A DNA stretch of 64,000 nt, taken from assembly GCF_054482595.1 (NCBI RefSeq), contig NZ_CM137008.1. The stretch is one strand, 5' to 3'. Both the position numbers and the translations under genes were made by a program. Shown in pieces: positions 4,323-31,048 of the stretch. Every line of letters begins with the position of its first letter. Positions within the stretch are counted from its first letter, which is position 1. The notes under the pieces are model-generated. The model saw nothing but the letters and a program-made list of their open reading frames with translations. It made no database searches and was not told where the DNA came from.

Positions 4323-5225
4323 AAAAAATTCAGCGGCATTATTCCACCGGTATCCAGCACGTTTCATCGTGACGGAACCCTTGATAAAAAGGCAATGCGC
4401 GAAGTTGCCGACTTCCTGATTAATAAAGGGGTTGACGGGCTGTTTTATCTGGGTACCGGTGGTGAATTTAGCCAGATGAATACAGCCCAGCGCATGGCGC
4501 TCGCCGAAGAAGCTGTAACCATTGTCGACGGGCGAGTGCCGGTATTGATTGGCATCGGTTCCCCTTCCACTGACGAAGCGGTCAAACTGGCGCAGCATGC
4601 GCAAGCCTGCGGCGCTGATGGTATCGTCGCCATCAACCCCTACTACTGGAAAGTTGCGGCGCGGAATCTTGACGACTACTACCAGCAGATCGCCCGCAGC
4701 GTCACACTGCCGGTGATCCTGTACAACTTTCCGGATCTAACCGGTCAGGACTTAACCCCGGAGACCGTGAAACGTCTGGCACTGCAAAATGAAAATATCG
4801 TCGGCATCAAAGACACCATCGACAGCGTCGGCCATCTGCGCACGATGATCAACACCGTTAAGTCTGTACGTCCGTCATTTTCGGTATTCTGCGGCTTCGA
4901 CGACCATTTACTGAATACCCTGCTGCTGGGCGGCGATGGCGCGATATCCGCCAGCGCTAATTTTGCTCCGGAACTCTCTGTCGGTATCTACCGCGCCTGG
5001 CGCGAGGGCGATCTGGCAACTGCCGCCACCCTGAATAAAAAGCTCCTGCAACTGCCCGCGATTTACGGCCTTGAAACGCCGTTTGTCTCACTGATCAAAT
5101 ACAGCATGCAGTGCGTGGGGTTGCCGGTGGAGACATATTGCCTGCCGCCGATTCTTGACGTCTCAGAAGAAGCCAAAGAAAAAGTCCACGCACTGCTGGC
5201 CGCGCAGGGCATTTTATCGGACTGA
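4323..5225 (+). CDS. yjhH: 2-dehydro-3-deoxy-D-pentonate aldolase (DapA/NAL family), YjhH/YagE-like
   Basis: DapA-family TIM barrel; from MKKFSGIIPPVSSTFHRDGTLDKKAMREV it is near-identical to my recollection of E. coli YjhH; directly followed by the yjhG-like dehydratase. Confidence 0.85.
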   Translation, partial: KKFSGIIPPVSSTFHRDGTLDKKAMREVADFLINKGVDGLFYLGTGGEFSQMNTAQRMALAEEAVTIVDGRVPVLIGIGSPSTDEAVKLAQHAQACGADGIVAINPYYWKVAARNLDDYYQQIARSVTLPVILYNFPDLTGQDLTPETVKRLALQNENIVGIKDTIDSVGHLRTMINTVKSVRPSFSVFCGFDDHLLNTLLLGGDGAISASANFAPELSVGIYRAWREGDLATAATLNKKLLQLPAIYGLETPFVSLIKYSMQCVGLPVETYCLPPILDVSEEAKEKVHALLAAQGILSD

Positions 5226-5235
5226 GGAGAAGATC

Positions 5236-7203
5236 ATGTCTGTTCGCCATATTTTTGCTGACGAAAGTCGCGATATCTACACCGTCAGAACCCACGCCGA
5301 TGGCCCTGACGGAGAACTGCCGCTTACGGCGGAAATGCTCATCAACCGCCCGAGCGGGGATCTGTTCGGGATGACCATGAATGCCGGAATGGGCTGGTCC
5401 CCAGACGAACTGGATCGGGACGGTATTCTACTGCTCAGCACGCTGGGAGGGTTACGCGGGGCAGACGGTAAGCCCATCGCGCTGGCGCTGCACCAGGGTC
5501 ACTACGAGCTGGATATCCAGATGAAAGCGGCCGCGGAGGTCATCAAAGCGAACCGTGTCCTGCCCTATGCCGTGTATGTTTCCGATCCGTGCGACGGACG
5601 AACTCAGGGTACGACGGGTATGTTTGACTCGCTACCGTACCGTAATGACGCCGCCATGGTGATGCGTCGTCTAATCCGCTCTCTGCCCGATGCGAAAGCC
5701 GTCATTGGCGTGGCGAGCTGCGACAAGGGACTTCCGGCCACCATGATGGCACTTGCCGCGCAGCATGACAAAGCGACGGTGCTGGTGCCCGGTGGCGCGA
5801 CGCTACCCGCAAGGGATGGGGAGGATAACGGCAAGGTGCAGACCATCGGCGCCCGCTTCGCCAATGGCGAGTTATCGCTACAGGATGCCCGCCGTGCGGG
5901 TTGTAAAGCCTGCGCCTCCTCCGGCGGCGGCTGTCAATTTCTGGGCACCGCCGGGACATCGCAGGTCGTAGCCGAAGGATTAGGACTGGCCATCCCGCAC
6001 TCAGCACTGGCCCCTTCCGGCGAACCGGTGTGGCAGGAGATAGCCAGAGCCTCCGCGAAGGCGGCGTTGAACTTATGTAAACAAGGCATCACCACCCGGG
6101 AAATACTCACCGATAAAGCGATTGAGAATGCGATGACGGTCCATGCGGCGTTCGGTGGTTCAACAAATCTGTTGCTGCATATTCCGGCGATTGCCCATCA
6201 GGCCGGCTGCCATATTCCAACCGTTGACGACTGGATCCGCATCAACAAGCGGGTGCCCCGACTGGTAAGCGTACTCCCCAATGGTCCGGTTTATCACCCG
6301 ACAGTGAATGCCTTCATGGCGGGAGGTGTGCCGGAGGTGATGCTGCATCTTCGTAGTCTGGGATTGCTGCATGAAGACGTGATGACGGTCACCGGCAGCA
6401 CGCTGAAAGAAAACCTGGACTGGTGGGAGCATTCCGAACGGCGTCAGCGGTTCAAACAGCTTCTGCGCGAACAGGAGCAGATCGATGCCGACGAGGTGAT
6501 CATGTCGCCACAGCGGGCACGGGAGCGCGGCCTGACCTCAACGATCACTTTCCCGGTGGGCAATATTGCCCCGGAAGGGTCGGTTATCAAATCCACCGCC
6601 ATCGATCCCTCGGTGATTGATGATCGGGGCATCTATTACCATAAAGGCGTGGCGAAGGTTTATCTGTCCGAGAAAAGCGCGATTTACGATATCAAGCACG
6701 AGAAGATTAAAGCGGGCGATATTCTGGTCATCATCGGCGTTGGCCCTTCCGGCACCGGGATGGAGGAAACCTACCAGGTCACCAGCGCCCTGAAACATCT
6801 GTCCTATGGCAAGCATGTTTCACTGATCACCGATGCGCGTTTCTCGGGTGTTTCCACGGGAGCCTGTATCGGCCACACAGGGCCAGAAGCACTGGCCGGA
6901 GGGCCAATCGGTAAATTACGCACCGGAGATATTATTGAAATTAAAATTGATTGTCGCGAGCTTCAGGGCGAAGTCAATTTCCTCGGAACCCGTAACGATG
7001 AAACATTACCCTCACGGGAGGAGGCCACCGCAATATTAAACGCCCGACCCAGTCATCAGGATTTACTTCCTGATCCTGAGCTGCCCGATGACACCCGACT
7101 CTGGGCGATGCTCCAGGCGGTAAGCGGCGGGACATGGACGGGTTGTATTTATGATGTAAATAAAATCGGCGCGGCCTTGCGCGATTATATGAATAAGAAC
7201 TGA
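5236..7203 (+). CDS. yjhG: D-xylonate dehydratase (IlvD/EDD family), YjhG/YagF-like
   Basis: IlvD/EDD-family protein starting MSVRHIFADESRDIYTVRTHADGPDGELPL, with CDGRTQG and SCDKG motifs; near-identical to remembered YjhG. Confidence 0.85.
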   Translation: MSVRHIFADESRDIYTVRTHADGPDGELPLTAEMLINRPSGDLFGMTMNAGMGWSPDELDRDGILLLSTLGGLRGADGKPIALALHQGHYELDIQMKAAAEVIKANRVLPYAVYVSDPCDGRTQGTTGMFDSLPYRNDAAMVMRRLIRSLPDAKAVIGVASCDKGLPATMMALAAQHDKATVLVPGGATLPARDGEDNGKVQTIGARFANGELSLQDARRAGCKACASSGGGCQFLGTAGTSQVVAEGLGLAIPHSALAPSGEPVWQEIARASAKAALNLCKQGITTREILTDKAIENAMTVHAAFGGSTNLLLHIPAIAHQAGCHIPTVDDWIRINKRVPRLVSVLPNGPVYHPTVNAFMAGGVPEVMLHLRSLGLLHEDVMTVTGSTLKENLDWWEHSERRQRFKQLLREQEQIDADEVIMSPQRARERGLTSTITFPVGNIAPEGSVIKSTAIDPSVIDDRGIYYHKGVAKVYLSEKSAIYDIKHEKIKAGDILVIIGVGPSGTGMEETYQVTSALKHLSYGKHVSLITDARFSGVSTGACIGHTGPEALAGGPIGKLRTGDIIEIKIDCRELQGEVNFLGTRNDETLPSREEATAILNARPSHQDLLPDPELPDDTRLWAMLQAVSGGTWTGCIYDVNKIGAALRDYMNKN

Positions 7204-7309
7204 AAGCAAAAATAAAAACATCCAGACACCTGAATTATCCGGTTACGCATTATTCATCCTGTGCGCAGCCGGATAATGACGGGTCGTTACCCTATGATGA
7301 GAGGACGTT

Positions 7310-8659
7310 ATGCCACTAATTATCGTTGTGGCAGGGATTGCTTTACTCCTGCTTTTAACCATAAAAATTAAGCTTAATACGTTTGTTTCGTTAATTATTG
7401 TCTCGATTGCTGTCGCCATCGCCAGTGGTATGGATTTGAGTAAAGTCGTCACCTCAGTCGAATCCGGACTTGGCGGTACGCTGGGCCATATTGGTTTGAT
7501 ATTTGGGTTCGGTGTTATGCTCGGTCGCTTGCTGGCCGATGCGGGGGGGGCGCAGCGAATAGCGCTGACCATGCTGAATTATTTCGGGAAAAATAAACTT
7601 GACTGGGCAGTGGTCTGTTCGGCGTTTATTGTCGGTATCGCACTTTTTTTCGAAGTCGGTTTAATTCTTCTGGTACCTATTTTATTCGCTATTGCCCGTG
7701 AAGCAAAAATATCACCGATGTTTATGTGTGTGCCGATGCTTTCCGGTTTGCTGGTCGCACACGGTTTTTTGCCGCCGCACCCCGGCCCGACAGTAATCGC
7801 CAGAGAATATGGTGCTGATGTAGGATTGGTACTGATATACGGTATCATTGTCGGCATTCCAACCTTTATTCTTTGCGGCCCGGTATTGAATAAATTCTGC
7901 CAGCGCATTATTCCGGAAGCCTTTAAAAAAGAGGGGAATATAGCCTCTCTCGGCGCGACCCGCCGGTTCAGCGAAAGCGAAATGCCTGGCTTTGGGATCA
8001 GTTTTCTCACGGCAATGCTGCCGGTGATCCTGATGGCGGTTGTCACCATCATCCAGATGACTCATGCCAAAAGTGCCGCGGATTCAGGCTTATTCTACAA
8101 CGTGCTACTGTTCTTAGGTAATTCGACGATCGCCATGCTGATTTCACTGCTGTTCGCGATCTATACCATGGGCCTGGGGCGCGGGAAAACAATCCCTGAC
8201 CTGATGGATTCTTGCGGAAAAGCTATCGCGGGTATTGCCGGTCTGCTGCTGATTATCGGTGGTGGTGGTGCATTCAAGCAAGTTCTCATCGACTCTGGCG
8301 TTGGTCAGTATATTTCCACCCTGGTTTCGGGTATGGATATTAACCCGATCCTGATGGCCTGGGGCGTGGCCGCATTCCTGCGTATTTGTCTGGGTTCAGC
8401 CACCGTCGCGGCGATCTCTACCGCCGGTCTGGTCATCCCATTGTTGGCAGTACATCCCAATACCAACCTGGCCTTGATTACGCTGGCTACCGGTGCCGGA
8501 TCCTGTATTTGTTCTCACGTTAACGATGCCAGTTTCTGGATGATTAAAGACTTTTTTGGCCTGACCACCAAAGAAACGCTGTTATCCTGGACGCTGATGT
8601 CCACACTCTTATCCATCAGTGGGCTGATTTTTATTCTGCTCGCCAGCTTAGTTTTATAA
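7310..8659 (+). CDS. yjhF: GntP-family permease (sugar-acid:H+ symporter), YjhF-like
   Basis: 449-aa polytopic membrane protein of the GntP type; position downstream of yjhG matches the K-12 yjhF arrangement. Confidence 0.8.
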
Positions 8660-18244: not shown

Positions 18245-19435
18245 TTAACGTTTCCGTCCTGGAAATACAAATAGTGCAATAACGGGAGATATTACCATCA
18301 GAACAAAAACATAGGTAAATCCAAGTGTAAATCCGCCTGTTAGATCGACCGACCAGCCAATTAACTGACTGTTTATCGTTGCCAAAATAAATGTACAAAC
18401 CCAGAAGGTGGACATTGAATAAGTAACAGTTTGGGTATTCGCATTTTTTTGTTCTTCTTTTGGAATGGAGAAGATGAATGCAAACCAGGTGGCAAAAATA
18501 GAACCCGTCAAAAACGAACAAACCAATATAACGATATCATTAGTGGCAAATAACATTGCAAAGGTTGTAATAGCCATAAAGATACTGGAAATAAATAGCC
18601 ATGATTTATAATTATACCCACGGTTTTTAAAGTACGGCCCCATCAATGCACCAAGTAAAATTCCCACCTGATTGACTGTGCCACTCAAGTGAGCACAGGA
18701 GTCAGGGGGAAGATTAGCATATTTTGCATAGTACAGAGGCAGAAATGTGAACATAAAAATCATCATGATCATTGCCCCAGCATACTGAATAATCATTCCC
18801 CAGACAATACGATTAAACAATACATCCTTTAATACAGATATTCGCTGTTCATAACTTATAGATATATGGCTATTCTGTTGTTGCTCTTCATCCGTGAAAC
18901 ATATTATCCAGACAACCCCCAATATTAACGTAATTATTCCATAGATAGCTAACAGATTACGCCACCCGTTGAACAGCAGTGATAAATAACCTGCCAATGT
19001 CAATGCAATAATTGTACCGATAATATTTGAAGTGCAATTTATACTATTTAATGTTGACGCCATTTTGTTATCGAAAAAGCGAGCAACCGTGGGCACCAGT
19101 GATACAAGGCAAATAGCCCCCCCCAGCCCACCAAGAAAACGAATAATCAATAACAAAGTAAAGTTATTAATAAATGGAATGAGCAAGGAGCTCCCAATCA
19201 TTATACATCCAAGAAAATAGGATTTTCGGGTGCCGAGCCGGGAAACAAAGACTGCAGTACAAACAGCTCCCACAATTTTAGCCCATAAAATTACATTTGA
19301 CATCAATGCAGCATGTGATACATCAACATTAAAATCACTCATAATTTGTGGCATTACGGCCCCTGTCGTAGCCCAGGCGGCACCAAATACCATATAAACG
19401 GTGTAAAGAATGAATTCAATGACCCATTTTTTCAT
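18245..19435 (-). CDS. MFS transporter
   Basis: 396-aa protein with ~12 predicted transmembrane helices; low-GC codon usage; start overlaps the stop of the upstream peptidase gene by 4 nt. Confidence 0.7.
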   Translation of the reverse strand: MKKWVIEFILYTVYMVFGAAWATTGAVMPQIMSDFNVDVSHAALMSNVILWAKIVGAVCTAVFVSRLGTRKSYFLGCIMIGSSLLIPFINNFTLLLIIRFLGGLGGAICLVSLVPTVARFFDNKMASTLNSINCTSNIIGTIIALTLAGYLSLLFNGWRNLLAIYGIITLILGVVWIICFTDEEQQQNSHISISYEQRISVLKDVLFNRIVWGMIIQYAGAMIMMIFMFTFLPLYYAKYANLPPDSCAHLSGTVNQVGILLGALMGPYFKNRGYNYKSWLFISSIFMAITTFAMLFATNDIVILVCSFLTGSIFATWFAFIFSIPKEEQKNANTQTVTYSMSTFWVCTFILATINSQLIGWSVDLTGGFTLGFTYVFVLMVISPVIALFVFPGRKR

Positions 19436-20685
19436 TTTTGTACCTCAGGGACACTTAGCTCAACCATTTCCAGCAGCATTTCACTGGCAAGACGCAGGGA
19501 TTCCACAGGCAAAAACTCTCTGGTTGAGTGAAAATTGTGCGCCCCTGTAAATATATTAATAGTAGGCAGCCCTTTTGGGGTGATGACGCTACCATCATAA
19601 CCACCGCGCATAATCAGTGGTTTTGGTGTAATGCCAAGGTTACGCATTGCCTTTCTAACGTTATCTAAGATTGCAGGTGTTTTATCAAGCGCTGGTTTGA
19701 CATTTTCATATATATCGGTTAACACTAATGTTATTCTTTCACTCTTCCAGCGCTGATTAATACTCTTAACAATGTTCTCGAGTACGGCTTTACGTTGTTT
19801 ATATCCTGTTAACTCAAAGTCCCGAATAGCAATATCAAGCGTGGCGCTGGCTGTATCACCATGGAGATTATGGACCCAATAATATCCTTCCCGTTTTTCA
19901 GTATGCTCAGGCCTTTCTTTTTCAGGTAATGCGGCGATAATTTCCGTTGCTATACACAACGCATTAACAAGCTTACCTTTAGCACTCATTGGATGTGCTG
20001 TAACACCACGAACTGTAATTCGTGCACTACCTGCATACCAGTTTTCAACAACATATTCTCCAATCTCACAACAGTCGAGACAGATACCAAAATCAGAATT
20101 CAGTTCACCAACATCAAGCGCTTTTGCCCCTCTGATACCGGTCTCCTCATCAGGCAAAAGAACAAGACGAATATCACCATGAGAAAAGGAGGGTGTATTA
20201 ATCATATATTTGAGAGCTTCAACACCTGCTGCAATGGCAGCTTTGTCGTCAGCCCCCAGCAAGCTGGTGCCATCAGTTACAATAATATCCTGACCGATAT
20301 AGTTGAGTAGTTCTGGATTATCCTGTGGGGATAGTTTTTCCACACTCCCTGCAAACGGTATAGCACCTCCGTTATACTTTTTCACTCGGAAAGCATGTGT
20401 ATCTGTACTGTGGTCCGGAGCTGTATCAAGGTGTGCAAAGAATACGATAGAAGGTGCATCAGGAATATTAGCGGGTAAATGAATTGTGGCAATAGCATTT
20501 TCTTTTATGCTTGTTTGTACCTCTGGAACATCAGAAAATTGATTTACAACATATTCTGCCAGTTTATATTGATTTTTACAGCTTGGAAGCTCCTTGCTAC
20601 CATCAACCGATGTCGTATTTATTTTTGTGTAATATAAAAAAGTCTCAATTATTTTCTCTAAGTCAATGCGTTTTTTCATGATCAT
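19432..20685 (-). CDS. M20-family metallopeptidase, peptidase T (tripeptidase)-like
   Basis: 417-aa protein with M20 metal-binding and catalytic motifs (FFAHLDTAPD, LGADDKAAIAAGVEAL, LLPDEETG); low GC. Confidence 0.75.
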   Translation of the reverse strand: MIMKKRIDLEKIIETFLYYTKINTTSVDGSKELPSCKNQYKLAEYVVNQFSDVPEVQTSIKENAIATIHLPANIPDAPSIVFFAHLDTAPDHSTDTHAFRVKKYNGGAIPFAGSVEKLSPQDNPELLNYIGQDIIVTDGTSLLGADDKAAIAAGVEALKYMINTPSFSHGDIRLVLLPDEETGIRGAKALDVGELNSDFGICLDCCEIGEYVVENWYAGSARITVRGVTAHPMSAKGKLVNALCIATEIIAALPEKERPEHTEKREGYYWVHNLHGDTASATLDIAIRDFELTGYKQRKAVLENIVKSINQRWKSERITLVLTDIYENVKPALDKTPAILDNVRKAMRNLGITPKPLIMRGGYDGSVITPKGLPTINIFTGAHNFHSTREFLPVESLRLASEMLLEMVELSVPEVQK

Positions 20686-20889
20686 ATACCTAATTGTTTA
20701 CTATCAATATCCTGACTATCTATATTTAGATAATATCCTGCAAAAATTAGTGAGTATAGAAAAGGTCGTCAGTTCCTGACTGGTAAATGTCCCTTCGAGA
20801 TTTATTAGAGTCATAATTTGCCTCATCCCAATACAAAAAACAATACGAAAGTATGAAAAAGTGTAGTGATCAACAAAATATTGCCACGT

Positions 20890-20967
20890 TTGTTTCGGTG
20901 TTATTGGAGAGGTTTTTGGTGTTTTGTCCTTACGAGCATCACGCAGTTGTTTGCCCCATCTTGTCAT
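20890..20967 (-). pseudogene. IS911-like OrfA fragment
   Basis: Translation [26 protein letters not shown] matches the central region of IS911-type OrfA; the rest of the ORF is not transposase-like. Confidence 0.45.
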
Positions 20968-21120
20968 CGTGGAAAGGCGACATCAATAGCTTGGTGTAAC
21001 TCTGGTCAACAACCAGTTGCACGGAGTTGCATATGAATTCAGGAGCTTTTCACTGGTGCACCTATATTGGCATATCTGAACCGCCCCGGAAATCCTGGAG
21101 ACTAAACTCTCTGAGAAAGA

Positions 21121-21189
21121 GGCAAACAGGATGACTAAAAAAACACGTTTTTCCCCCGAAGTCCGTCAACGGGCAGTTCAATGCTTTGT
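21121..21189 (+). pseudogene. IS629/IS3411-like OrfA N-terminal fragment
   Basis: MTKKTRFSPEVRQRAVQCFVE followed by a stop; resembles the IS629-type OrfA N-terminus MTKNTRFSPEVRQRAV. Confidence 0.45.
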
Positions 21190-21602
21190 CGAATAAACAT
21201 TTACCTGAACGATTAACTGCAACGGCTATCCTTACCGACAATCAACGTCAATAAAAATCTGTACTGACTCGTCAGCACTGGGTTCGATCAGTAGGAACAT
21301 GAATTCAAAGGCCTCCTTGCTGAATCTCAAGACTCCTCCGATTCCAAAGATAAACCCCGTCTTAAGTTCGCTGGCCTGAAATTCGGTGACTATTGTCTAT
21401 ATCGGGATCACCACGGTTGTGTGATTAATCATCGTCGATCATAAAGCGTCTATGGATGTACTGCGGCGTTCCTGCTACTGGTGATCACCCTGTGGTTGTG
21501 CAATTCCAAACGGATGAAGCGAGAGTAACAGACATCACGCCGCAATCGGGGGCGGCGTGTAGACGTGGTTAATTACTATCAAATATATTAATCAGGCCGA
21601 TT

Positions 21603-23054
21603 CTATTTGCTTTCATTTATGGTTTCCATCATGAGCTGTTGCTGCTTTTCTTTGGACAGTCGAGCGATACCAAAGCCTGTGAACCCCCACAGCGTCGCAA
21701 AGAAAATGCCACTCCAGCAGAGAATAGCCCACGGAAGATAGCTTAATGTAGCAACGCCAAGTGTACCTGCCATGTAGGCACCCGCGGCAGTCCAGGGCAG
21801 AATTGGTTCAAATATGGTGGCAGAGTCTTCTACAGTCCTTGCCAGATTTTTTGGATGTAGGCCGCGCTCAATATAAGCACTTCGTAGCATTTCAATCGGA
21901 ATCAGGATTGATATCTGACCATTACAGGTCACGCTAATCATTGTTAAACCACAGGCAATAGTCGCAAGAATCATGGTTCCTGTGGAATGAACTAATTTGA
22001 GCAGATTATGGACGATGACTTCTAAAGCGCCGCTCAAGGCTAATGTTCCTGCAAATGAAAGGGCGCAGAAACAAATAAGCAACGTACTCATCATCGAGTT
22101 CATGCCACCGCGGTTTAACAAATTACCTAATAGCGGATTAACATCTTTATCGGTAAGCATTGAAACGTTAAATCCGTCTACTGCACTTTTAACAATGTCG
22201 TGTAGTGCGAACCCCTGAATAACGCTGGCGTTGATCATGGCTACCAGTGCCGAAACAAGCATAATTGGAATGGTTGGTTTCTTGGTAATCGAACCGTACA
22301 GGACAATGGCAATGGGTAGCAATAACAATAAATTAAAATGATAAATTCCTTTTAATCCTTCAGTGATTAGCTGAATTTTTTCGGGAATGGTTGAGCCGCC
22401 GAGCTCGCCATTCATCCCATAGAGCGTCATAACAAAGGCTGACAGTATCAATGAAGGAAGGGTTGTATAAAGTAAATGAGCGATGTGTTCATAGAGATCT
22501 ATCTGGGCTGCCATTGCGGCTAAGTTAGTATCACCAGAAAGGGGAGACAGTTTGTCCCCGAAGTAAGCCCCTGCCACAATAGCGCCTGCAGTTGCTGCCA
22601 GATTAGCCTCCATTCCGATAGCCACACCCATAAACGCAACACCGACGGTGCCTGCGGATCCCCAGGATGTCCCTGTGCATACAGAAACGACGGCAGTAAC
22701 GAGCAGGGCCGTCACATAGATCATGGAAGGATTTATCAGAATAAGGCCGTAATAAATCATCAGCGGAATAGTACCGCCTATCATCCATGTCCCAATCAGG
22801 AGGCCCACGCTGATCAAAATTAGCAGAGCAGGCATTGTTTTAGCGATTTTCTGCGATATTGATTCAAGGATTGCATTGTAGCCATACCCCAACCGCTTAA
22901 CTAACAGTGCAGCAATGACGGTTGAAAGAACCATTAATGGCTCAGGTGGCAGATCGAATGCCGCATAACCAAATCCCAGCAATAGTATCATCGCTAGTAT
23001 TGGTAATAATGATTCCACCAGAGTTGGGGATCTTGGAGTATTGTTATTATTCAT
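21603..23054 (-). CDS. NhaC-family Na+/H+ antiporter-type transporter (possible amino-acid or organic-acid carrier)
   Basis: ~480-aa polytopic membrane protein with NhaC-like topology; likely start MNNNNTPRSP at 23054, immediately after the stop of the upstream C-S lyase; low GC. Confidence 0.7.
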   Translation of the reverse strand: MNNNNTPRSPTLVESLLPILAMILLLGFGYAAFDLPPEPLMVLSTVIAALLVKRLGYGYNAILESISQKIAKTMPALLILISVGLLIGTWMIGGTIPLMIYYGLILINPSMIYVTALLVTAVVSVCTGTSWGSAGTVGVAFMGVAIGMEANLAATAGAIVAGAYFGDKLSPLSGDTNLAAMAAQIDLYEHIAHLLYTTLPSLILSAFVMTLYGMNGELGGSTIPEKIQLITEGLKGIYHFNLLLLLPIAIVLYGSITKKPTIPIMLVSALVAMINASVIQGFALHDIVKSAVDGFNVSMLTDKDVNPLLGNLLNRGGMNSMMSTLLICFCALSFAGTLALSGALEVIVHNLLKLVHSTGTMILATIACGLTMISVTCNGQISILIPIEMLRSAYIERGLHPKNLARTVEDSATIFEPILPWTAAGAYMAGTLGVATLSYLPWAILCWSGIFFATLWGFTGFGIARLSKEKQQQLMMETINESK

Positions 23055-24225
23055 GAAGGGAAACTCCTGTAGTGAAGGGGATGCTCTGATAAATCCGTTC
23101 AAATGCTTGTGTAAGATTGCTTCTCGGCGTGGCTATGTTCACACGGAAAAAACCAAGTCCTTCATCGCCAAAATCTGATCCCCAGCTCATCTCAACACCT
23201 GCGAGCGAGACAAACCAATGGCGTAGTTGCTCTTCGCTGATGTTCATTGCCCGGTAGTCGATCCACAACATGTAAGTTCCGCCACCAGAGGCGACAAACC
23301 AGTCTGGAAAATGAGCTTGGCAGAATGATTGAACCCAGCTCCTGTTTTCGACCAAATAATCTTTTAATGCTGCTAACCAAGAATCGCCATGGCGGTAAGC
23401 ACAGAGAAATGCAGGAACAGAGAAATAACCAGGATTATGGATACCTGCTGCAATAAGAGCTAATTTAAACTGTTCACGATATTTATCGTTAGCAATAACA
23501 ATATTTGCGATTTCAAGTCCGGCCATATTAAAAGTTTTTGCTGGAGATGTACAAATAAACGAGTTTTGTGCAACGTATGAGCTTATAGAAGAAATTGTTT
23601 GATGTTGTTTTTGGGTGAAGTTGAAGTCTGCATGAACATCATCAGAAATAATAAAAACATTATATTTTTCTGCTAATGAAGCTATTTTCCTTAGATTGTC
23701 TTCTGACCAGATTGTTCCTGTTGGATTATGCGGCGATATTAGAATGAAACAACAAGCCATTTTAAACTTATCTTCGAGATCCGCAAAGTCTATTTCATAG
23801 TGGTGGTCACGATAAAGTAACGCACTTTCCAGCAATACTCGATGGTTGACTTCAACTGCATGACTAATAGGATGATAGGCTGGTGCCAGGCTGACAATAG
23901 CATCTCCCGGTTGGGTAAAGTTCTGGATAAATAATGAGACGGCCTGTACTACCCGTGGGCAAAAAACAATGTGTTCAGGGTTGACCTTCCACGAGTAATG
24001 GCGTTGATACCACTGTGCTGCCACTTGCTGCCAGTCATCACTTAATAATGTATAACCGTAGATACCTTTCTGATTTGCGACAGATAATTCAGAAACTATA
24101 AAATCAGCTACAGGAATATCCATATCAGCTACAGACAGGGGAATGATGTCACGCCCCTTGTTATTATATTTAGCGCTATAGGTTCCGTCGCGTGAAATAA
24201 CTTTATCAAAATTATAAACTTTCAT
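23047..24225 (-). CDS. PLP-dependent aminotransferase class I/II enzyme, PatB/MalY-type cysteine-S-conjugate / cystathionine beta-lyase
   Basis: Likely start MKVYNFDKVISRDGTYSAKYN; typical MalY/PatB features (SVADMDIP, aminotransferase fold); first gene of a low-GC minus-strand cluster. Confidence 0.75.
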   Translation of the reverse strand: MKVYNFDKVISRDGTYSAKYNNKGRDIIPLSVADMDIPVADFIVSELSVANQKGIYGYTLLSDDWQQVAAQWYQRHYSWKVNPEHIVFCPRVVQAVSLFIQNFTQPGDAIVSLAPAYHPISHAVEVNHRVLLESALLYRDHHYEIDFADLEDKFKMACCFILISPHNPTGTIWSEDNLRKIASLAEKYNVFIISDDVHADFNFTQKQHQTISSISSYVAQNSFICTSPAKTFNMAGLEIANIVIANDKYREQFKLALIAAGIHNPGYFSVPAFLCAYRHGDSWLAALKDYLVENRSWVQSFCQAHFPDWFVASGGGTYMLWIDYRAMNISEEQLRHWFVSLAGVEMSWGSDFGDEGLGFFRVNIATPRSNLTQAFERIYQSIPFTTGVSLHE

Positions 24226-24657
24226 ATTTGTTACTCGCCCGGTTTTATCGTTAGGGTAATGTAATATTTCGAGGGAGGAAGTGTTATTCTGTATTTTGTT
24301 TTCGTTATTATGAAAATTTGCATATGTGATGTTTATCACAAAGATGTTAACTATCTGTCAATAAAAAGACTCCAGCAAATGTAAACGTTTTACATCGCTT
24401 AAGCCTATGGAATTTACATAAAAAAAGGGCGTGCCGAGTCTTTCGACCCAATCATTATCTCGGTAACTCCATTCACAAGAGCAGGAAATAACCTCTTCAA
24501 CAAATAACAGACTGATGCCTGCGAGCGCGCTCCCCAGGTTTCCGGGCTGAAAGTACCGCCGCACTCGTTTAACGCGGAACAGTCTGTGTTGGCGGTTTAA
24601 TGGTGGATGTTGCTGTAGACCACAACTGATGAGGCAACGGAGTTTACCGTGATGATT

Positions 24658-25839
24658 CCTATTTATCATTTTCTGGTCAGTGCCGCGATTCTGGTATTCA
24701 TGGTGATTTTCTGTCAGACACGCCATCGCGACCACCGTAACTGGCTGGCTCTGCTGCTATTCGTATTATGATCTGTAAACAGCTGGCCATTGCGGATGGT
24801 TAAAGGAACAATTGTGGGGACAACTGACACATTGCGTAAAATGCAGCGTTATGAACAACTGAGTCAGCACGGGGCTGACAGCTGGAAAATCCTGCTGGGA
24901 GCACCGTTATATGACACGATTGTTATTGTCACTAGTGAGAGTGTGCGCAGGAATTATATGACAGCGTATGGCTATCCCGTATCAACCACACCGTGGCTGA
25001 ATATGGCACCCGGTTTATTTATTGACGGTTATAACTCGACAGCCTCCAGTACTGTGCCTTCCCTGAGCCGGACACTGATTTATGACTATGAGCAGCCCCC
25101 TGATTCCGACAACAACGTGGTGGCGCTGGCAGCAAAAGCAGGATACAGCACATAGTGGATATCCAATCAGGGAAAACTGGGGGAGTATGACACACGCATC
25201 TCTGTTATTGCTTCTGATGCGGAGCATACCGCTTTCCTCAAGAAAGGCAGCTTCGCTTCCCGTAAAACAGATGACAAACTGTTGTTACAGGAAACAGAAC
25301 GTGCGCTGGCGGATACATCCTCTCCGAAGATAATTTTCCTGCACATGATGGGTTCTCATCCAAATCCGTGTGACAGCCTTAACTCCTGGCCGAATAATTA
25401 CCTGGAGCAGTATCCCCGAAAAATTGCCTGTTACCTCGCCAGCATCAGTAAACTGGATAACTTTCTTGGCCAGCTTGATGGTATCCTTCGCCGGTACTCA
25501 CGTCATTTCGCCATGCTTTACTTTTCTGGCCTTGGGCTGTCGGTCAGCGACAGTGCTAATCCTGTTCATCATGATGGTCATGTGCAGGGGGGCTACAGCG
25601 TTCCCCTGATTATTACCGCCAGTGACATCACGTCTCATCAGTCCGTCAGCAGGAAAATCAATGCCCGTAATTTCGCAGGCATTTTTCAGTGGCTGACCGG
25701 TATTCGTACCGAAAATATAACGCCATTCAATCCGCTGACAGACGAAGATAATGAACCCGTTATGGTTTTTAACGGAGAGAAAAATGTGCCGGCAGACAGT
25801 CTGAAACCGCAGCCACTTATTCTTCCGGACCACAGGTAA
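24658..25839 (+). pseudogene. Phosphoethanolamine transferase (sulfatase-family, EptA/YhbX-like) pseudogene, truncated and frameshifted
   Basis: Two adjacent ORFs in different frames (24790-25155 and 25282-25839) carry sulfatase-domain motifs (YGYPVSTTPWLN; IIFLHMMGSHPNP); a short transmembrane peptide is encoded just upstream; the N-terminal membrane domain is missing. Confidence 0.55.
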
Positions 25840-26162
25840 TCATATATGGCAAACTGTAATACAGTCTCTTGTACTGAAAAGGATTCTGTATAGAATAGAA
25901 CCTGTATTCATATCAGCACAAGGGACCACCAAATCCCGGCAACATTCCTTACGTCAGTTATCCCGCATCACCCTGTGGGTGCGGGATTTTTTATGATGTT
26001 TCTTTTTATTGAATATATATAAATAACGAATAACTGCGGATTCTGATAATCCACCTGCAGGGAGCAATCCGGTAAACATTTAATACATCAGTTAATATCG
26101 TTTTGCCTTTTTAACAAAGAAAATATTCATGGAGTAAGTTCCCGGGCATTTGCCCGGGATGA

Positions 26163-27625: not shown

Positions 27626-27701
27626 TGGTGCCCGGACTCGGAATCGAACCAAGGACACGGGGATTTTCAATCCCCTGCTCTACCGACTGAGCTATCCGGG
27701 C
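27626..27701 (-). tRNA. pheV: tRNA-Phe (GAA)
   Basis: Reverse complement reads GCCCGGATAGCTCAGTCGGTAGAGCAGGGGATTGAAAATCCCCGTGTCCTTGGTTCGATTCCGAGTCCGGGCACCA, which is E. coli tRNA-Phe with CCA end. Confidence 0.97.
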
Positions 27702-27806: not shown

Positions 27807-28514
27807 TCAGGCAAACCAGGCGGTCCAGGCGGCGGAAAGCGGCATTGCCAGAAGGAGTGCTGGAAGCATGTTGACCACCGGGAACATTTTAATGCCACAG
27901 ATGCGTAATCCGGTTGCCAGCAGCAATAAACCGCCTACGGCGCTGAAGTCTGCCATCATCGACGGTGTGGTCAGCGGTAATATCAGCGTGGCAGCCCACG
28001 CCAGCGTTAACTGGATGATCAGTAATGGGATACTAATCACCGATACCGCAATACCCAGCGAGCAGGCGAAGATCATCGCCGTAAAGAAATCAAGAAATGA
28101 CTTGGCGATTAAAATACTCGGATCGCCGGTCATCCCTTCGTTCATCGCCCCGAAGATCCCGGTGCCGCTGGCGCAAAACAGGACAATAATCGCGACATAA
28201 TTCTGAATAAAAGATTCATGCGCTGGCTTCTTACGTGAGTGACGAAACAGATTTTGTGCTTTGGCGACCGCTGTATTGACGCCTTTCTCCAGCAGACAAA
28301 TTTCGCCGATTAATGCTCCGAGTAAGGTTGCTAAAACCATCGCCGGAAGGTTGGCGCATTTCACCACCAGTAAAATACCAATCCCCAGCGATGCCAGACC
28401 AAAAATTGATGTCATGGAGACGCGGATACGTTCCGGTAAGCGTTGGCTAAGCAGTGCACCGAGCATGCCACCCAGTAATATTGCACTTGCGTTGATAAAA
28501 GGGCCGATGACCAC
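27807..28514 (-). CDS. yqgA: DUF554 inner-membrane protein YqgA
   Basis: 235-aa membrane protein; matches K-12 YqgA and its position next to pheV. Confidence 0.9.
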   Translation of the reverse strand: MVIGPFINASAILLGGMLGALLSQRLPERIRVSMTSIFGLASLGIGILLVVKCANLPAMVLATLLGALIGEICLLEKGVNTAVAKAQNLFRHSRKKPAHESFIQNYVAIIVLFCASGTGIFGAMNEGMTGDPSILIAKSFLDFFTAMIFACSLGIAVSVISIPLLIIQLTLAWAATLILPLTTPSMMADFSAVGGLLLLATGLRICGIKMFPVVNMLPALLLAMPLSAAWTAWFA

Positions 28515-28912
28515 AAGAGTTCCTGTTAACTGTATTGTTTGATTTTCTTATTATGAACTTTTTGCCTTGTTGATGGCTTGTCTAGTCGCAAAGTCCTGGC
28601 TTGCACGCCTTAGCGAAAGGTGCCATGATTGCGCGAATTTTCTCCTCTCTGTACGGAGTTTGCCCGATGCACGCCATCTCCTTACATTCTCTCGCTTATC
28701 GCCGTTTCGCGCGAAACCCTTCTCTTTTTATGCTACTGCTCATGCGGTGAAGTTAACGCACGTTCACTGCAGGACAACAGTAAAATCAGAGCGTTTCTGC
28801 TTTTACTGATGTCTGGCGGTCGGAGCTGGTGACCAGTTTGACCCATATCTCATGGGGCAGGGTTTTACACCTTGTCCGGTATTCTTACTTCCCCGAAACG
28901 GGTTTTGCGCTT

Positions 28913-31048
28913 ATGAAATCAATGAATATTGCCGCCAGTAGTGAACTGGTATCCCGACTTTCTACTCATCGCCGCGTGGTGGCGTTGGGAGATACTGATT
29001 TTACGGACGTCGCGGCAGTCGTCATTACCGCTGCGGATAGTCGCAGTGGCATTCTTACGTTGCTTAAGCGCACCGGTTTTCATCTACCGGTGTTTTTGTA
29101 TTCCGAACATGCTGTTGAATTACCTGCGGGCGTTACGGCGGTAATCAACGGCAACGAGCAGCATTGGCTGGAGCTGGAATCCGCAGCCTGTCAGTATGAA
29201 GAGAATTTGCTGCCACCGTTTTATGACACGCTGACGCAGTACGTTGAGATGGGCAACAGCACCTTTGCTTGCCCTGGGCATCAACATGGTGCGTTTTTTA
29301 AAAAGCATCCTGCCGGACGCCATTTTTACGATTTCTTTGGTGAGAACGTCTTTCGCGCCGATATGTGTAATGCTGACGTAAAATTGGGCGATCTGCTTAT
29401 TCATGAAGGATCGGCGAAAGATGCGCAGAAATTCGCAGCCAAAGTCTTTCATGCCGATAAAACCTATTTTGTACTGAACGGCACATCGGCAGCGAATAAA
29501 GTGGTGACGAATGCGCTATTAACGCGTGGCGATCTGGTGCTCTTCGACCGTAACAACCATAAGTCGAATCATCACGGCGCGCTGATTCAGGCGGGGGCGA
29601 CGCCGGTCTATCTGGAAGCTTCACGCAACCCGTTTGGTTTCATTGGCGGTATTGATGCGCACTGTTTTAATGAAGAGTATCTGCGCCAGCAAATTCGCGA
29701 CGTTGCGCCAGAAAAAGCCGACCTGCCGCGCCCGTTTCGCCTGGCGATTATTCAGCTGGGAACCTATGACGGCACTGTCTATAACGCCCGTCAGGTGATC
29801 GATACCATTGGGCATCTGTGTGATTACATTCTGTTTGATTCCGCGTGGGTCGGTTACGAACAGTTTATCCCGATGATGGCGGATAGCTCGCCGCTGCTGT
29901 TAGAACTTAACGAAAACGATCCAGGGATCTTTGTGACTCAGTCGGTGCACAAACAGCAGGCGGGATTCTCACAGACGTCGCAGATCCATAAAAAAGATAA
30001 CCATATCCGCGGACAGGCGCGTTTTTGCCCGCATAAGCGGTTGAATAACGCCTTTATGCTCCATGCTTCTACCAGCCCTTTCTATCCGCTGTTTGCTGCA
30101 CTGGATGTTAACGCCAAAATTCATGAAGGGGAGAGTGGGCGTCGGCTGTGGGCTGAGTGCGTTGAGTTGGGTATTGAGTCGCGCAAGGCTATTCTTGCGC
30201 GCTGTAAGCTGTTCCGCCCGTTTATCCCGCCCGTTGTTGATGGCAAATTGTGGCAGGATTATCCGACATCAGTGTTAGCCAGCGACCGCCGTTTTTTCAG
30301 TTTTGAGCCGGGGGCGAAGTGGCACGGCTTTGAAGGATATGCCGCGGATCAGTATTTTGTTGATCCGTGCAAGCTGTTACTCACTACACCAGGTATCGAT
30401 GCCGAAACCGGCGAGTATAGCGACTTTGGCGTTCCGGCGACGATTCTGGCGCACTATCTGCGTGAGAACGGCATTGTGCCGGAGAAGTGCGATCTCAACT
30501 CCATTCTGTTCTTATTAACTCCGGCGGAAAGCCAAGAGAAGCTGGCACAACTGGTGGCGATGCTGGCGCAATTTGAACAGCATATTGAGGATGACTCGCC
30601 GCTGGCTGAGGTGTTGCCGAGCGTTTATAACAAATATCCGGTGCGCTATCGCGACTACACCCTGCGCCAGTTGTGTCAGGAGATGCACGATCTGTATGTC
30701 AGTTTCGACGTCAAAGACCTACAAAAAGCGATGTTCCGCCAGCAGAGTTTCCCGTCAGTGGTGATGAACCCCCAGGATGCGCATAGCGCTTATATTCGCG
30801 GTGACGTGGAGTTGGTGCGGATTCGTGATGCCGAAGGGCGAATTGCGGTAGAAGGGGCGTTGCCTTATCCACCTGGCGTGCTTTGCGTGGTACCCGGGGA
30901 AGTCTGGGGTGGGGCGGTTCAACGTTATTTCCTTGCACTGGAAGAAGGGGTGAATTTGTTGCCGGGATTTTCGCCGGAGCTGCAAGGTGTTTATAGCGAA
31001 ACCGATGCGGATGGCATGAAACGGTTGTACGGTTATGTGTTGAAGTAA
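28913..31048 (+). CDS. speC: Ornithine decarboxylase, constitutive
   Basis: From MKSMNIAASSELVSRL...; full-length match to remembered SpeC (711 aa). Confidence 0.95.
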   Translation: MKSMNIAASSELVSRLSTHRRVVALGDTDFTDVAAVVITAADSRSGILTLLKRTGFHLPVFLYSEHAVELPAGVTAVINGNEQHWLELESAACQYEENLLPPFYDTLTQYVEMGNSTFACPGHQHGAFFKKHPAGRHFYDFFGENVFRADMCNADVKLGDLLIHEGSAKDAQKFAAKVFHADKTYFVLNGTSAANKVVTNALLTRGDLVLFDRNNHKSNHHGALIQAGATPVYLEASRNPFGFIGGIDAHCFNEEYLRQQIRDVAPEKADLPRPFRLAIIQLGTYDGTVYNARQVIDTIGHLCDYILFDSAWVGYEQFIPMMADSSPLLLELNENDPGIFVTQSVHKQQAGFSQTSQIHKKDNHIRGQARFCPHKRLNNAFMLHASTSPFYPLFAALDVNAKIHEGESGRRLWAECVELGIESRKAILARCKLFRPFIPPVVDGKLWQDYPTSVLASDRRFFSFEPGAKWHGFEGYAADQYFVDPCKLLLTTPGIDAETGEYSDFGVPATILAHYLRENGIVPEKCDLNSILFLLTPAESQEKLAQLVAMLAQFEQHIEDDSPLAEVLPSVYNKYPVRYRDYTLRQLCQEMHDLYVSFDVKDLQKAMFRQQSFPSVVMNPQDAHSAYIRGDVELVRIRDAEGRIAVEGALPYPPGVLCVVPGEVWGGAVQRYFLALEEGVNLLPGFSPELQGVYSETDADGMKRLYGYVLK

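Follow-up and report, generated by a model that had tools for sequence, protein, structure and literature searches.

A decayed yjgX-family phosphoethanolamine-transferase remnant at the integrase end of a pheV island

The window, the whole stretch of 64,000 nt that was analysed, chromosomal DNA of Escherichia coli, contains the remains of a yjgX-family phosphoethanolamine (pEtN) transferase gene, belonging to the pEtN-transferase/alkaline-phosphatase superfamily, next to the integrase at one end of a tRNA-linked island. The copy has lost its 5' part, carries three nonsense codons in its single frame and has exchanged a metal-binding residue pair, and it very probably has no function and persists by linkage. 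The features on which this reading is built are collected in Table 1.

Table 1. Features of the window that bear on the yjgX remnant, in order of position
Feature	Position	Strand	Basis or detail
MFS transporter, pepT (19432-20679), psiE fragment (21395-21528), nhaC (21603-23054), patB (23047-24225)	18400-24225		Left of the junction
Decayed 5' dnaB-like fragment, 168 bp (37 bp leader and ~44 codons)	24441-24608	+	DNA identity to dnaB
yjgX-family pEtN-transferase remnant, codons 91-499 and stop of the 499-aa form, single frame	24609-25839	+	Gapless DNA alignment, tblastn, PGAP
Nonsense codon TAG (Q93*)	24616-24618	+	CAG, Gln93, in the intact allele; in 5/5 assemblies compared
Nonsense codon TGA (C144*)	24769-24771	+	TGC, Cys144, in the intact allele; in 4/5 assemblies
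Nonsense codon TAG (W272*)	25153-25155	+	TGG, Trp272, in the intact allele; in 5/5 assemblies compared
GGC CTT (Gly-Leu) replacing GAC CAT (Asp397-His398) of the SDHG motif	25528-25533	+	Alignment to intact alleles
Recombination tract: 3' segment of the remnant and downstream DNA	25540-25900	+	100% to AR436, ~90% to K-12 yjgX
Terminator-like hairpin with T run	25960-25995	+	10-pair stem, 6 G-C pairs, then TTTTT
P4-type tyrosine integrase, intact, 421 aa	26163-27428	-	Arm-DNA-bind_3, Phage_int_M and Phage_integrase domains
tRNA-Phe (GAA), pheV copy, island attachment site	27626-27701	-	Rfam scan

Identity of the remnant and anatomy of its decay

When the intact family member P0002 was used as the tblastn query, its residues 91-499 aligned to 24610-25836 of the window with 88.5% identity (E = 0), and over the same codons the remnant shares 90.7% protein identity with WP_106087037.1, the intact 499-aa protein of strain AR436. 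Two Sulfatase (PF00884) matches, at 24790-25152 (E = 4.5e-11) and 25156-25836 (E = 7.3e-16), flank the stop at 25153 and confirm the sulfatase-domain motifs that the original prediction had recognised in the letters. The gene end that it had placed at 25839 was also correct, while its start at 24658 was set too late, the homology beginning 49 bases earlier at 24609. Orthology, the Sulfatase domain and a tail-to-tail position at a P4-type integrase and tRNA, by which membership of the yjgX family was judged, were all found. Megablast revealed that 1701 bases of the window are identical in strain GTEN_97, in which the equivalent of 24619-25839 is annotated by PGAP as a pseudogene, [quoted passage not shown].

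The window contains no second copy, as tblastn with either P0002 or the paralog P0020 as the query led to this one locus only. P0020, a second E. coli paralog of 511 aa, shares 52% identity with the YjgX-type protein; its cluster, of 1955 member sequences, is named "lipid A phosphoethanolamine transferase" by the sources.

Aligned with the intact allele of AR436, the DNA of the window shows no gaps from 24609 to 25900, and all homologous pieces fall in the frame of base 24610. No Sulfatase signal was detected in the ORFs of other frames or of the other strand, namely 25082-25330, 25370-25606, 25501-25833 (minus strand) and 24361-24735 (minus strand). A frameshift, which had been proposed because the motifs seemed to occur in two frames, is ruled out by the gapless alignment together with the lack of Sulfatase matches in these ORFs; the gene is disrupted within a single frame by three nonsense codons and a 5' truncation.

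The intact N-terminus features five predicted hydrophobic segments (residues 11-35, 37-59, 56-80, 102-128 and 135-151). Since the homology of the remnant starts only at codon 91 of 499, three of these five segments, the start codon and the promoter are gone, and the expectation that the membrane anchor would be largely missing is upheld by the absence of the first 90 codons. Of the hydrophobic segments, the window still encodes only the fourth and the fifth, and the latter is interrupted by the TGA at 24769, as C144* falls inside it; strain 19SZHZ663Rt retains TGC at that position. W272* is located in the middle of the Sulfatase domain.

The SDHG motif of the family aligns with the SDHG of E. 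coli EptC and MCR-1, and the ESxR motif aligns as well. The Asp-His pair of SDHG is metal-binding and provides zinc ligands in the solved structures of MCR-1 and EptA, and it is this pair that the remnant has replaced with Gly-Leu. The catalytic Glu (in TSESVR) and the candidate Thr nucleophile (in STASSTVPS) are both retained, so the decay of the active site is partial. An open frame with its own start, the five-helix membrane domain and the Asp-His of SDHG, all of which belong to a functional pEtN transferase, are missing from the remnant. Between codons 91 and 400, the window and AR436 are separated by 38 non-synonymous and 32 synonymous codon differences, counts that are consistent with relaxed constraint and are not decisive.

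Island end, dnaB junction and recurrence

The tRNA-Phe gene was assigned to the pheV copy because it is followed by two ORFs recognised as YqgA (27807-28514, minus strand) and SpeC (28829-31048, plus strand). An Rfam scan over all of the window gave no match besides this tRNA. When its 3' end was searched for as a direct repeat within the window, no second copy was found, even of 14 nt, so the island has its other boundary beyond the window or in a degenerate form. The position beside an integrase that had been noted from the letters is corroborated by the three integrase domains of the adjoining gene, which PGAP names "tyrosine-type recombinase/integrase". The remnant is located directly to the left of this gene and, as the two are encoded on opposite strands, they converge tail to tail, a layout also present in AR436, K-12, GTEN_97, 19SZHZ663Rt and CDE2901. 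The terminator-like hairpin, a strong one, is situated between the convergent remnant and integrase, 121 nt 3' of the stop codon of the remnant.

On its 5' side, the remnant is fused straight to a decayed dnaB fragment at 24608/24609 with no evident microhomology. PGAP marks the fragment as a pseudogene and gives it no name beyond "hypothetical protein". Its best matches, at 89.3% identity, are dnaB genes of the Citrobacter freundii complex, and its identity to the 5' end of E. coli dnaB is 83-84%. Its start ATG is changed to AGA (24478-24480), a TAA is present at 24505-24507 and 1 bp is deleted. The metabolic and transport module to the left of the junction is intact, including patB of the MalY/PatB family. 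The donor was sought by scanning genome contigs with a conserved dnaB-leader pattern, which retrieved 39 enterobacterial dnaB loci; patB or nhaC was not found beside dnaB in any of the 39, nor was an exact donor of the fragment or of the patB-nhaC module found among them. Because these dnaB loci have no adjacent patB or nhaC, the fragment and the module are regarded as separate pieces and the junction region as a patchwork.

Four further complete genomes, each sequenced independently, have the dnaB'-'yjgX junction, Q93* and W272* in identical form, GTEN_97 and CDE2901 carrying them at pheU, 19SZHZ663Rt at leuX and Santai at another site, and C144* is present in three of the four (GTEN_97, CDE2901 and Santai, not 19SZHZ663Rt). 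PGAP likewise annotates a pseudogene in these other assemblies. In total, 374 of 5426 complete genomes matched a 286-nt junction probe with at least 80% coverage, and the whole 24.7-kb island stretch is rare, occurring in 9 genomes only. The patB-dnaB'-'yjgX-integrase module is identical at three tRNA sites (pheU, leuX and pheV) of different strains, with differing 3' yjgX mosaics, indicating that the integrase-proximal island end has been exchanged between sites.

Over 1187 nt, the remnant is closer to K-12 yjgX (94.2% DNA identity) than to the intact AR436 allele (91.5%). The likeness is nevertheless not uniform, since positions 25301-25539 are 99.6% identical to K-12 and 91.2% to AR436, and the reverse pattern holds for the tract that starts at 25540. 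The other four copies (GTEN_97, CDE2901, Santai and 19SZHZ663Rt) possess yet other 3' ends. These allele comparisons point to recombination between yjgX alleles that has repeatedly overwritten the integrase-proximal end. The Gly-Leu change is common to the remnant, K-12 yjgX and the protein cluster P0009 (501 member sequences), named "phosphoethanolamine transferase YjgX" by sources; as it is shared while the 5' breakpoint and the secondary lesions of K-12 differ, the change is older than the truncations and stops, which arose independently.

Intact copies, for which a search had originally been suggested, do occur in related islands. One of them, the AR436 ortholog, is encoded beside the integrase of the leuX island, and full-length proteins form a 90%-identity cluster of 8941 member sequences. 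With the intact gene as the query, a match was obtained in 2973 of 5426 complete E. coli genomes (~55%), with a maximum of 5 places in one genome. Of the 5426, 1450 (27%) contain 80% or more of the gene, and the remaining matching genomes contain remnants of several recurrent shapes. All of the pheU, pheV and selC sites analysed by Saile et al. in 2018 held putative pEtN transferases, YjgX or YhbX (PMC6174562), and a bloodstream-infection GWAS from the Denamur group reported "putative opgE" adjoining phage-type integrases in pap islands (PMC8946752). yjgX is commonly found as a recurrent integrase-flanking gene of leuX, pheU, pheV and selC islands. The original description as a degraded cargo gene of the island is therefore right in that the gene is degraded and lies beside the integrase, and wrong in that it is not cargo specific to this island. 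Given the PGAP annotation and the published notes on yjgX or opgE at the integrase side, the feature was already known.

Proposed history and alternative readings

A history in four steps could account for the present state. The remnant and K-12 yjgX would go back to one allele lineage, whose SDHG motif had already exchanged Asp-His for Gly-Leu, a change that probably abolished catalysis at that stage. An illegitimate join would then have cost the gene its promoter and start codon together with codons 1-90, which encode three of the five membrane segments, and set the MFS transporter-pepT-nhaC-patB module, ending in the Citrobacter-like dnaB fragment, against codon 91. Subsequently, nonsense mutations may have piled up, Q93* and W272* before C144*, and recombination with other yjgX alleles would have replaced the integrase-proximal 3' end, which now equals that of an intact allele. 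This order of events is a suggested one, drawn from five genomes. The outcome would be a remnant that is probably not expressed and yields neither an enzyme nor an effect on the envelope, and that very probably persists because it is located between retained cargo and the integrase.

A broader reading concerns the family. The YjgX family may be an uncharacterised OpgE-like pEtN transferase that travels with P4-type integrases and has, in some islands, an outer-membrane beta-barrel protein gene as its partner. Its target may lie outside lipid A, for instance in periplasmic glucans or a different glycan of the envelope, and its repeated and independent inactivation might then reflect selection against the activity in some E. 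coli backgrounds and not neutral decay alone. This reading is held to be unlikely; were it true, the window copy would be a further case of recurrent loss, alongside the Gly-Leu lineage, the varied 5' truncations and the varied stops.

It is very improbable that the remnant is itself functional, whether through a C-terminal fragment (ORF 25282-25839), a non-catalytic role of the Gly-Leu form or cis-acting integrase-proximal DNA. Two ORFs survive, of 121 aa (24790-25155) and 185 aa (25282-25839), both with TTG starts, and their translation is possible in principle. The latter, however, lacks the half of the active site with Glu and Thr as well as a signal or anchor, and has Gly-Leu in place of Asp-His; the promoter scan returned 5 sites against 4.3 expected from the shuffled background, which is no excess. 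The Gly-Leu lineage is widespread, as seen from the size of cluster P0009, and the last 300 nt of the remnant are 100% identical to an intact allele. The persistence of 3' ends in many genomes, among them short 3' remnants (positions 1389-1489 and 1446-1500), would be accounted for by a cis-acting role, but linkage alone predicts persistence beside the integrase, and the five copies differ in additional stops and 3' mosaics, as is the pattern of neutral decay and recombination. A non-functional remnant retained by linkage is thus the preferred reading.

The original prediction had regarded the gene as a frameshifted EptA/YhbX-type transferase for lipid A or the LPS core, the intact form of which would confer polymyxin resistance. 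There is a certain kinship, as the superfamily is the same, the intact ortholog shows a weak match to EptA_B_N (E = 9.7e-5, marginal) besides its Sulfatase match (E = 1.6e-36), and some databases call relatives "lipid A phosphoethanolamine transferase". Nevertheless, this assignment is highly improbable, since the frameshift is absent and the intact ortholog falls far under the NCBIfam equivalog cut-offs, reaching 39.8 and 56.1 bits with the EptA models (cut-offs of 660 bits for NF008619, the E. coli-type model, and 561 for NF007160), 47 bits with EptB (cut-off 493) and 106.2 bits with CptA, the heptose-I pEtN transferase (NF007933, cut-off 404). BLASTP of the intact ortholog, in which five intact K-12 paralogs were compared, ranked OpgE as the closest (30% identity over the full length, E = 1e-73), far above YhbX (33% over 247 residues of the catalytic domain only, E 1e-28 to 4e-28), EptC (22%, E = 1e-22), EptB (23%, E = 1e-11) and EptA (22%, E = 4e-8). 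The PDB chain 5zzu of EptC gave E = 1.2e-17. The ortholog is placed outside EptA and EptC/CptA by these cut-offs and is not orthologous to YhbX over the full length, and its 30% identity to OpgE is at the level of a paralog only.

With OpgE, and not EptA or YhbX, as the closest K-12 paralog, a role in polymyxin resistance is unsupported. A literature search on yjgX found no published polymyxin phenotype, and the only yjgX experiment that it found is a defensin screen (PMC4808223) in which a K-12 deletion of the gene served as false-positive control. Nothing was found to support the suggested action on lipid A.

The last alternative, an intact gene whose disruptions are sequencing or assembly errors, which had been named as the outcome that would overturn the prediction, is so improbable that it can be set aside: single-base errors can create stops in principle and nothing was found in its favour, whereas the junction, Q93* and W272* recur identically in four independent genomes and C144* in three, and base-calling error cannot yield unrelated DNA in place of the first 90 codons.

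As an ordinary pseudogene, the remnant matters little, and its sole value is that of a marker of island history and mosaicism, the dnaB'-'yjgX junction at pheU, pheV and leuX showing that the integrase-proximal module has been moved from one tRNA-linked island to another or has recombined among them. The remnant does not belong in a list of determinants of polymyxin resistance or envelope modification. The question of the substrate belongs to the intact YjgX-type alleles; about one complete E. coli genome in four has a copy of near full length.

Relation to known yjgX and pEtN-transferase genes

K-12 yjgX (b4575), likewise a pseudogene, adjoins intB in the KpLE2 or PR-Y element at leuX. It resembles the window remnant in family, allele lineage and the Gly-Leu change, in its tail-to-tail arrangement with a P4-type integrase at a tRNA, and in being both 5'-truncated and disrupted. 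The two copies are distinct in their sites, leuX for K-12 and pheV for the window, and in their 5' breakpoints, which correspond to about position 314 of the intact gene in K-12 and to 270 in the window. K-12 yjgX has its own 1-bp deletion and other stops and is free of Q93*, C144* and W272*. In addition, the 3' end of the window remnant has been replaced by an intact-type allele, unlike that of K-12.

The intact form of AR436 shares the integrase-side neighbourhood and the identical last 300 nt with the window remnant. It features five N-terminal hydrophobic segments, SDHG and a reading frame with no internal stops, all three of which are lost in the window. Upstream of the gene, AR436 carries a gene for an outer-membrane beta-barrel protein, in contrast to the dnaB fragment and patB of the window. 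This beta-barrel gene (PF13505, 246 aa) is located at 4818-5558 of the AR436 locus. In K-12, opgE adjoins ompX in convergent orientation (5451-7598 of the fetched K-12 locus), and the two arrangements, beta-barrel with yjgX type in AR436 and ompX with opgE in K-12, may be a parallel gene pairing.

OpgE (YbiP) of E. coli K-12, a pEtN transferase that modifies osmoregulated periplasmic glucans (PMC3818809), has the same architecture as the YjgX type, with a multi-pass membrane domain at the N-terminus and a periplasmic Sulfatase domain after it. OpgE is encoded by a core-genome gene beside ompX, whereas the YjgX type is island-borne, and at 30% identity it rates as a paralog rather than an ortholog. 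EptA and the MCR type, EptB, EptC (CptA) and YhbX belong to the same superfamily and share the catalytic-domain fold, with ESxR and SDHG aligning, but it is the catalytic domain alone that aligns between EptA, EptB, EptC or YhbX and the YjgX type, with 21-33% identity.
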